Positions 25,780 to 26,199 are shown, counted from the first letter of the stretch. The stretch: 29,475 nt of DNA from a virus (IMGVR_UViG_2778261167_000005:1-29475); one strand, 5' to 3'. Numbers and translations are program-made. Notes: generated by a model not told the origin, from the sequence alone.

Positions 25780-25791
25780 TTCTGCTAATAC

Positions 25792-26127
25792 ATGGAATTG
25801 TCTATGAGTCTTCAGTATCAATATTTCGAACCAGGCATTGAAGTAATCCCATTCGGCCCTACCGAGGACAAATTCGTAGAGCCACAGCGACATTTTACAG
25901 TATCGGGTGACCAGAAAGAAGTTCATGCTTATCTAGAGGCTGTGTCGAGTGTGGTTAACACTAAATTCAGCGTGTTTTACGATATGCGCATAGAAAGTAG
26001 AAATACTGCAGTAGGTTTTTCAGATGCAATGGTCAACTTAGTTTTCTGTTTTGATCCAACAAATGCATTAGATGAAGATGCATTTAAAGAGAAATTTATT
26101 CTGCCTTTCAGAAATATGTTTATTTGA
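25792..26127 (+). CDS. Low-GC hypothetical protein inserted in the head module
   Basis: 111-aa ORF, markedly AT-rich, followed by its own intrinsic terminator. Confidence 0.4.
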   Translation: MELSMSLQYQYFEPGIEVIPFGPTEDKFVEPQRHFTVSGDQKEVHAYLEAVSSVVNTKFSVFYDMRIESRNTAVGFSDAMVNLVFCFDPTNALDEDAFKEKFILPFRNMFI

Positions 26128-26146
26128 TACGTATAAGTCTTCCTAA

Positions 26147-26174
26147 GGTCGCTCCGGCGGCCTTTTTTATTGCC
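26147..26174 (+). terminator. Intrinsic terminator
   Basis: GGTCGC-TCCG-GCGGCC stem (one G-U pair) then TTTTTTATT. Confidence 0.6.
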
Positions 26175-26199
26175 TGAAATCCACCAATGAGGACGAAAC

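Follow-up and report, generated by a model that had tools for sequence, protein, structure and literature searches.

The window analyzed here is a 29,475-nt stretch of viral DNA, and the gene content of this 29.5-kb sequence is that of a lambdoid E. coli prophage. An integrase gene is located at 681-1766 on the minus strand. Genes for RecT (2876-3967) and an exonuclease VIII-like, or RecE-like, protein (3980-6913) follow; such a RecE-like and RecT gene pair is also present in Rac-like prophages. An ORF at 9838-10377 in the early region adjoins the gene of a DnaT-domain replication protein and contains a YdaT_toxin domain (PF06254, E = 7e-26). The early and late genes in the window also include those for NinG, a holin, and a lysozyme. 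The late-gene antiterminator Q is encoded at 17043-17867 on the plus strand (Pfam PF03589 Antiterm, E = 1.4e-45).

The head-gene block begins with the genes for TerL (21891-23363) and the portal protein (23376-24845). They are followed by a Mu F-like (SPP1 gp7-like) minor head or head-morphogenesis gene at 24772-25779 on the plus strand (PF04233, E = 6.8e-11; phrog_758, E = 1e-145). A DUF2213 head gene is located at 26200-27558 on the plus strand. It starts with GTG, encodes 452 aa, and matched phrog_760 (E = 4.5e-177). Its PF09979 score was 19.7 bits, under the cut-off of 22, and its name is backed by the annotation of the relatives' proteins as DUF2213 domain-containing protein. A decoration-like gene (27558-28019) and the major capsid gene (28016-29071) come next. 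The gap between the Mu F-like and DUF2213 genes, which we call the slot, is 420 nt long. Within it are an ORF, a T-run preceded by a hairpin, and the site at which ribosomes bind to translate the DUF2213 gene. An earlier sequence-only reading had placed the ORF within the head-gene block, and this was confirmed: the TerL, portal, and Mu F-like genes lie upstream and the DUF2213, decoration-like, and major capsid genes downstream.

That reading had placed the ORF at 25792-26127. An ORF of 111 aa is present there, but its start was most likely misplaced and the gene is shorter. The second ATG (MSLQY..., window position 25804) was the start in 22 of 22 homolog clusters, and the upstream in-frame ATG was missing in distant homologs. 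As all homologs begin at the second ATG, we moved the start accordingly. The real gene is most likely 25804-26127 (stop codon included) on the plus strand, and it is predicted to encode an acidic, soluble protein of 107 aa from an orphan family. Its 22 homolog clusters, dN/dS values, and AF2 model are described below. The ATG is 24 nt from the Mu F-like stop codon. From sequence reading, a weak Shine-Dalgarno (SD) motif GGAA is present at 25794-25797 on the plus strand, and the homologs have GGAG or GGAGG at equal spacing.

The ORF was said to be far more AT-rich than its neighbors, and the numbers agree. Its GC content is 0.380 and its GC3 is 0.324, whereas the six flanking genes used for comparison (TerL, portal, Mu F-like, DUF2213, decoration, and major capsid) have GC of 0.52-0.58 and GC3 of 0.60-0.72. 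Of all 324-nt segments in the 29.5-kb sequence, just 3.1% are equally AT-rich, and inside the head block they are found only in the island of this ORF. Two minus-strand ORFs, 25555-25926 and 25977-26270, overlap the region and were treated as spurious. The latter is the reverse reading of a conserved linker (LRPHWWISGNKKGRR...) and recurs behind unrelated cargos.

Other low-GC islands of the prophage (GC ≤ 0.42) are located at 19530-21011, 7898-8820, 12429-12727, and 14096-14516. The largest one, 19530-21011, lies between the lysis genes and the terminase, a classic moron position. It contains ORFs at 19690-20202 and 20737-21207 on the minus strand and at 20362-20649 on the plus strand; the minus-strand ORFs had no Pfam match. 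The island at 7898-8820 contains an ORF at 8100-9023 on the minus strand. These further islands are probably additional accessory cargo.

On the left side of the slot, DNA similarity to relatives without the ORF ends at about 25752-25758. The Mu F-like gene ends in an AT-rich stretch of some 7-10 codons (starting near 25753) that co-vary with the type of cargo. They come just after a conserved stretch coding for K-E-R-K-x-W. Because these 3'-end codons travel with the cargo, the left breakpoint is placed inside the 3' end of the Mu F-like gene.

On the right side, a predicted intrinsic terminator (hairpin plus T-run) is located at 26145-26168 on the plus strand. The hairpin itself (26145-26164) has an 8-bp stem, AAGGTCGC/GCGGCCTT, with five G-C pairs and a 4-nt loop, and is followed by six Ts. 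It was the top-scoring site within 21000-29475 and was present in both MFE and centroid folds. The folding energy of such hairpins is -13 to -16 kcal/mol. A simple terminator consensus scan was unenriched relative to shuffled sequences (6 found versus 8.6 expected) and by itself proves nothing, so the case for a terminator rests on comparative data.

Downstream of the T-run is a conserved linker tail, ATTGCCTGAAATCCACCAATGAGGA, at 26169-26193 on the plus strand, which is identical or almost so after unrelated cargos. It includes the SD motif of the DUF2213 gene (GAGGA, 26189-26193), 6 nt before the GTG at 26200, in agreement with the strong ribosome-binding site that had been assigned to the next gene. 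When the ORF region was searched with blastn, only its final 50 nt or so (26144-26194) matched other phages, whatever their cargo. The exact 29-nt tail pattern was found in at least 119 IMG/VR contigs. It was directly upstream of the DUF2213 gene in 72 of the 80 contigs read, and 63 of these 72 also had an identifiable Mu F-like gene upstream. The pattern reaches distant phages, in which identity to the window's proteins falls to about 33% for the Mu F-like protein and 50% for the DUF2213 protein. In a set of 21 loci chosen without use of the pattern, pairwise identity of the tail was 95%, even where the adjacent DUF2213 DNA was 60% identical. Neither hairpin nor tail had an Rfam match at E ≤ 1.

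A stable hairpin and a T-run were directly upstream of the tail in 168 of 168 tail-bearing loci, which argues for the intrinsic terminator that had been proposed 3' of the ORF. The stems in these loci have at least eight different sequences, among them GGTCGC/GCGGCC, GGTCGC/GCGACC, CCCGC/GCGGG, CCCAGC/GCTGGG, GCCGC/GCGGC, CCTCGC/GCGGGG, and CCCTCC/GGAGGG. As the stems vary and still pair (compensatory variation), the hairpin itself appears to be selected. The comparison thus gives good evidence that selection maintains the hairpin as a structure and the tail as a sequence. That the hairpin is an integron-like attC site seems unlikely; the window has no integron integrase, and the hairpin looks like a plain terminator.

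We compared the slot among related phages. A megablast search of 24700-27600 against GenBank phages matched Klebsiella and Enterobacter phages in two pieces, with the ORF left out. Their junctions contained a 201-nt ORF on the minus strand (KO-TP1), a 225-nt ORF (ST101-KPC2phi6.1), a 477-nt ORF (ST11-VIM1phi8.1), or about 750 nt of unannotated sequence (phage 2b LV-2017). Eighty IMG/VR loci were gathered via the DUF2213 protein, and junction length was taken as the distance between the stop codon of the Mu F-like gene and the start codon of the DUF2213 gene. Across 92 loci, the junctions were 15 to 1451 nt long and formed 41 DNA clusters. Empty junctions of 15-17 nt, in which the head genes abut, were found in six IMG/VR loci and in the E. 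coli genomes H30-H34. No hairpin was found at empty junctions.

A census of 173 unique junctions of related phages gave about 45 unrelated cargo protein families and nine empty junctions. The family of the window's ORF occupied 10 of the 173. Among the larger families, only the Rap1a/Tai T6SS-immunity proteins (14/173) and the HNH_3 endonucleases (12/173) could be named, and the remaining cargo families had no Pfam or PADLOC match. The head module was present in 20 of 5,426 complete E. coli genomes, with alleles that were empty, Rap1a/Tai, or hypothetical. Plus-strand cargos usually begin 10-95 nt past the Mu F-like stop.

The sequence-only reading had suspected an inserted gene and pointed to its presence or absence in related phages as a check. 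In most relatives, the slot was empty or held another cargo. This pattern clearly contradicts the idea that the ORF is a structural gene which all relatives have kept, as it is missing from most of them. The empty and other-cargo junctions, the foreign composition, and a family member at another slot (see below) strongly support insertion. Since the ORF is not conserved in relatives sharing the head module, we regard it as inserted cargo. It is likely a horizontally acquired, non-structural accessory gene in a hypervariable cargo slot of a lambdoid E. coli prophage.

The hairpin, T-run, and tail form a unit of about 50 nt, whose distribution differs from what had been expected. The terminator had been described as the ORF's own and as unusual within a morphogenetic operon. 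Neither description held. Many unrelated plus-strand cargos end with a hairpin, a T-run, and the tail ATTGCCTGAAATCCACCAATGAGGA, and at least one such unit was counted in 43 of 92 related junctions, so it is common in this phage group. Long junctions hold the unit internally and a second cargo, often an HNH endonuclease, after it, giving tandem cassettes. In locus L170 (5925-6004), the unit is present without cargo; the Mu F-like reading frame enters the hairpin and its stop codon is in the loop. The unit can therefore exist at the boundary without an inserted gene.

The unit was also found at another junction, in Salmonella phage ES18 (L005:2064-2134, after gp3) and Enterobacter phage CobraSix (L006:2144-2226, after gp03). 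There it follows a different small ORF between TerL and gp4/portal, and the ES18 annotation calls it a putative terminator. The likeness to our locus is the same hairpin, T-run, and tail after a small ORF in a packaging/head operon. The differences are the junction, which comes after TerL and before gp4 or the portal gene, and the ORFs, which are unrelated: hhalign of the window protein against the ES18 gp3 and CobraSix gp03 ORFs gave probabilities below 1%, i.e., no homology. Five further loci (L120, L122, L134, L151, and L155) were grouped with these two as having the unit at this other junction of ES18-type phages, again behind a small uncharacterized ORF. In L120 and L122, an ES18 gp4-like ORF follows the unit, behind the Mu F-like gene. 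The unit thus seems to move between junctions.

The protein family was searched for in several collections. Among 5.8 billion proteins, it comprised 22 clusters at 90% identity. A profile search of 1.84 billion representatives at 50% identity returned four family members and one odd, repetitive match. This match is a 2999-aa protein (P0015), which was hit in 10 separate stretches, all at profile positions of about 9-37, the N-terminal beta-hairpin region (E = 3e-10). P0015 may be a repeat protein of a similar hairpin motif or a compositional artefact. All family members are from Enterobacterales (E. coli, Klebsiella, Enterobacter, and Dickeya) and only from prophages, including 6 of 2.9 million IMG/VR contigs. 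The family was not found in GTDB species-representative genomes, plasmids, or 50,697 GenBank phages, and the ORF was not found in the 5,426 complete E. coli genomes.

Family members have 105-112 aa and 14 invariant residues, including G35, Q37, H41, Y43, L44, Y59, and D74, at identities down to 34%. Close pairs gave dN/dS of 0.47-0.61; distant pairs had saturated synonymous sites. The AF2 model of the 107-aa protein had a pLDDT of 81.6. The conserved length, the invariant residues, dN/dS below 1, and the confident model show that the family gene encodes a real and fast-evolving protein. The 107-aa protein and all 22 family members had no match in Pfam, PHROGs, NCBIfam, or PADLOC. With the 107-aa protein, a PDB sequence profile search gave one match at chance level (E = 0.87), and fold searches gave none. 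No likeness to catalogued defence or anti-defence proteins (PADLOC-DB; solved anti-defence proteins in PDB) was seen by sequence or fold. The family is new in being uncharacterized; the kind of element is well known.

All family members but one are at the Mu F-like/DUF2213 junction, and the terminator unit always comes after them. In loci L098-L100, a family gene and a Rap1a gene share one junction. The exception (P0013, locus L095) comes from an HK97-like phage and occupies a different accessory slot, with the lysis genes on one side and HNH/TerS on the other. A Kiwa defence system (KwaA, PF28043; KwaB, PF16162, weak) adjoins the lysis cassette of that HK97-like phage, at L095:54-1455 and L097:54-1455.

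We searched for a promoter of the ORF. Neither a standard nor a relaxed scan found a sigma-70-like site on the plus strand in 25600-25810. A promoter-like site, TTAACA-17-TACGAT, is inside the ORF at 25955-25983 on the plus strand; it came from a consensus scan only, with 9/12 matches, and the number of promoter-like sites in the region was not above chance. Family members at the junction are all tightly packed, 9-25 nt behind the Mu F-like gene, with an SD motif. Because no promoter was detectable and the gap to the Mu F-like stop is 24 nt, the ORF is probably co-transcribed with the late genes. A non-consensus or activator-dependent promoter in the Mu F-like 3' end may be present, which counts against a promoterless reading. 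Upstream of the P0013 homolog at L095 is a promoter-like TTGACT-18-TAGACT; at other sites, members of the family can thus form units of their own. Other cargos, at L026 and L075, have a near-consensus promoter (TTGACA-17-GATATT or TTGACT-17-GATATT) upstream of the ORF, in the first 50 nt or so after the Mu F-like stop. The slot therefore appears to hold both canonical morons and tightly packed promoterless cassettes.

The ORF had been suggested to be a moron. Morons are defined by extra DNA, deviant GC, their own promoter, their own terminator, and expression from the prophage (Cumby et al. 2012, PMC3594210; Juhala 2000). HK97 gene 15 and lambda lom and bor are morons of lambdoid phages (Juhala et al. 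2000, reviewed in PMC3594210). The suggestion stood in part: there is extra DNA between genes that adjoin in other phages, with deviant GC and a terminator, but a promoter of its own was not found. Like lambdoid morons, the window's ORF is inserted between late-operon genes, differs in GC, has a 3' terminator, and is patchily present. Unlike them, it follows the upstream gene at a distance of 24 nt and lacks a detectable promoter, and its terminator belongs to a unit common to unrelated cargos rather than being private. The ORF is thus probably a moron-like, apparently promoterless cargo cassette and not a canonical moron.

In the mechanism that we propose, the inserted unit would run from the last Mu F-like codons through the AT-rich ORF to the 3' unit of about 50 nt, with hairpin, T-run, and RBS-bearing tail. 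The ORF would be transcribed from upstream as part of the late operon. As is well established for lambda, Q-modified RNA polymerase ignores intrinsic terminators. During lytic growth, it would pass the hairpin, and the downstream capsid genes would still be made. In a lysogen, the hairpin would halt unmodified polymerase before the capsid genes, whether it comes from upstream or from spurious promoters of AT-rich cargos (e.g., 25955-25983). The slot also shows that these phages maintain a terminator within a morphogenetic operon, an arrangement that can be understood only with antitermination of late transcription.

In the simplest reading, the conserved 3' end of the Mu F-like gene and the linker tail would act as short homologous anchors, so that cargos would be swapped between phages by recombination. 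For the tail, this role is suggested by its conservation, and translation initiation or mRNA processing of the DUF2213 gene could equally explain it. For lambdoid phages, short conserved boundary or linker sequences have been proposed as the means by which modules are exchanged (Susskind and Botstein 1978; Clark et al. 2001; as cited in PMC3029335). The likeness is a non-coding conserved stretch of about 30-50 nt at a mosaic joint with interchangeable modules beside it. A difference is that the window's boundary also has a conserved terminator hairpin and the next gene's RBS, and its role in recombination is our reading of the conservation.

As for the protein, it might serve in conflicts between phage and host or between bacteria (by anti-defence, exclusion, or immunity-like binding) and not in head assembly. 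This is our best guess, held with low confidence. It was made because the slot is shared with T6SS immunity genes and the family is rare, rapidly evolving, and apparently non-structural. The guess draws on context and evolutionary rate, and dN/dS of 0.5-0.6 fits relaxed constraint too.

Several other explanations were weighed. A canonical moron would have its own promoter and terminator and be expressed from the repressed prophage, with a benefit such as superinfection exclusion or toxin immunity. The ORF shares three features with the morons described in PMC3594210, namely extra DNA, deviant GC, and a terminator. In addition, clear lysogen-type genes (the minus-strand Rap1a genes) and the L026/L075 cargos with TTGACA-17-GATATT are found in this slot, and the L095 homolog has a promoter-like upstream region. 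We nevertheless consider this explanation unlikely for the window's ORF. Only 24 nt separate the Mu F-like stop from its ATG, the 25600-25810 region has no sigma-70-like site even by the relaxed scan, and the family members at the junction are all packed 9-25 nt behind the Mu F-like gene, with an SD motif.

The promoterless cassette that we prefer can be taken further. The unit and the conserved Mu F-like 3' end could together mark a site in the head operon that is dedicated to the exchange of mostly promoterless cassettes, and a large group of enterobacterial siphophages would have it. The plus-strand cargos, this orphan family among them, would then be late-expressed effectors, packaged or acting at the end of infection (e.g., anti-defence proteins delivered with DNA), and not lysogenic-conversion genes. 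This extension is speculative, and we rate it as quite unlikely to hold in full.

The protein could also be a capsid-delivered effector, made late, packaged with the Mu F-like protein, and injected with DNA to disarm host defence. A proposal that Mu F toxins are delivered as Mu F-linked cargo (PMC5576092) counts in favor of such an effector. So do the apparent late co-transcription right behind the Mu F-like gene, the hypervariable slot, and the protein itself, which is small, acidic, soluble, and fast-evolving. Packaged proteins that are delivered with DNA are known from T4, as its internal proteins. Against this, we saw by eye no N-terminal targeting motif common to the different cargos of the slot, and the protein does not resemble any known packaged or anti-defence protein. 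The periplasmic Rap1a proteins and the HNH endonucleases of the same slot are unfit for the role. On balance, capsid delivery is distinctly improbable.

The ORF could also encode the immunity protein for a toxin domain on the upstream Mu F-like protein. In Mu F polymorphic toxin/immunity systems (Jamet et al. 2017, PMC5576092), a small ORF is directly after muf, near the portal gene, as in the window, and such an ORF was seen for 89% of Mu F toxins (PMC5576092). The window's ORF is small (<150 aa), has no known domain, and is directly downstream of muf, and the last Mu F-like codons co-vary with the cargo. The window's protein is a "short MuF", however: PF04233 spans residues 194-302 of 335, with no C-terminal extension or toxin domain, and the relatives' Mu F-like proteins have 295-335 aa. 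The slot can also be empty in relatives with the same Mu F-like protein. A small downstream ORF is present at 25.5% of short MuF genes as well, making the arrangement unspecific (PMC5576092). A Mu F toxin/immunity pair was rejected as very improbable because the Mu F-like protein has no toxin domain.

Finally, a conserved head-assembly or structural gene of odd composition, or a chance ORF, would suit the head-gene block, the same strand, and the SD motif, but both are hardly credible. Against a structural gene, the ORF is missing from most relatives, including alleles with abutting head genes, and from the 50,697 GenBank phages and 5,426 complete E. coli genomes. Against a chance ORF, length and invariant residues are preserved in homologs as distant as 34% identity, dN/dS is <1, and the AF2 model is confident.

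Taken alone, the ORF changes little, being one more uncharacterized accessory gene in a prophage late operon. Such genes were recognized as a class with HK97 and lambda. Of greatest interest are the breadth of the hotspot and the common terminator/tail unit, both of which extend the first observation. A useful by-product is the map of the slot: it contains about 45 interchangeable families, nearly all of them without known function, beside Rap1a T6SS immunity and HNH genes. Many cargos are tagged by the conserved 29-nt sequence, which allows a cheap harvest of candidate accessory, anti-defence, and immunity genes. If the cassette-exchange reading were true, the slot would be a rich unmined source of counter-defence and conflict proteins, with the tag TTTTATTGCCTGAAATCCACCAATGAGGA. 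As a clean natural case, the slot could also serve to test whether module exchange in lambdoid phages is driven by short conserved boundary sequences.

Two kinds of named cargo were seen in the slots of relatives. The Rap1a/Tai-family (PF18602) T6SS-effector immunity genes encode signal peptides and are always on the minus strand (clusters L074, L088, and L050; L098:2621-2977; E. coli H35-H38). Literature searches found no paper on Rap1a genes of prophage head modules. These genes begin about 20 nt from the DUF2213 start codon; their promoter must therefore be inside the DUF2213 coding region. HNH_3 endonuclease cassettes were observed in L004, L054, L091, L030, L015, L052, L053, and L058, and are often second, behind an internal terminator/tail unit. 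They resemble free-standing homing-endonuclease insertions; the window's cassette differs in having no endonuclease. The L058 junction contains the empty-site sequence and the first 20 nt or so of the DUF2213 gene, followed by the HNH gene. Judged by its sequence, it looks like a homing-type insertion with a regenerated DUF2213 5' end.
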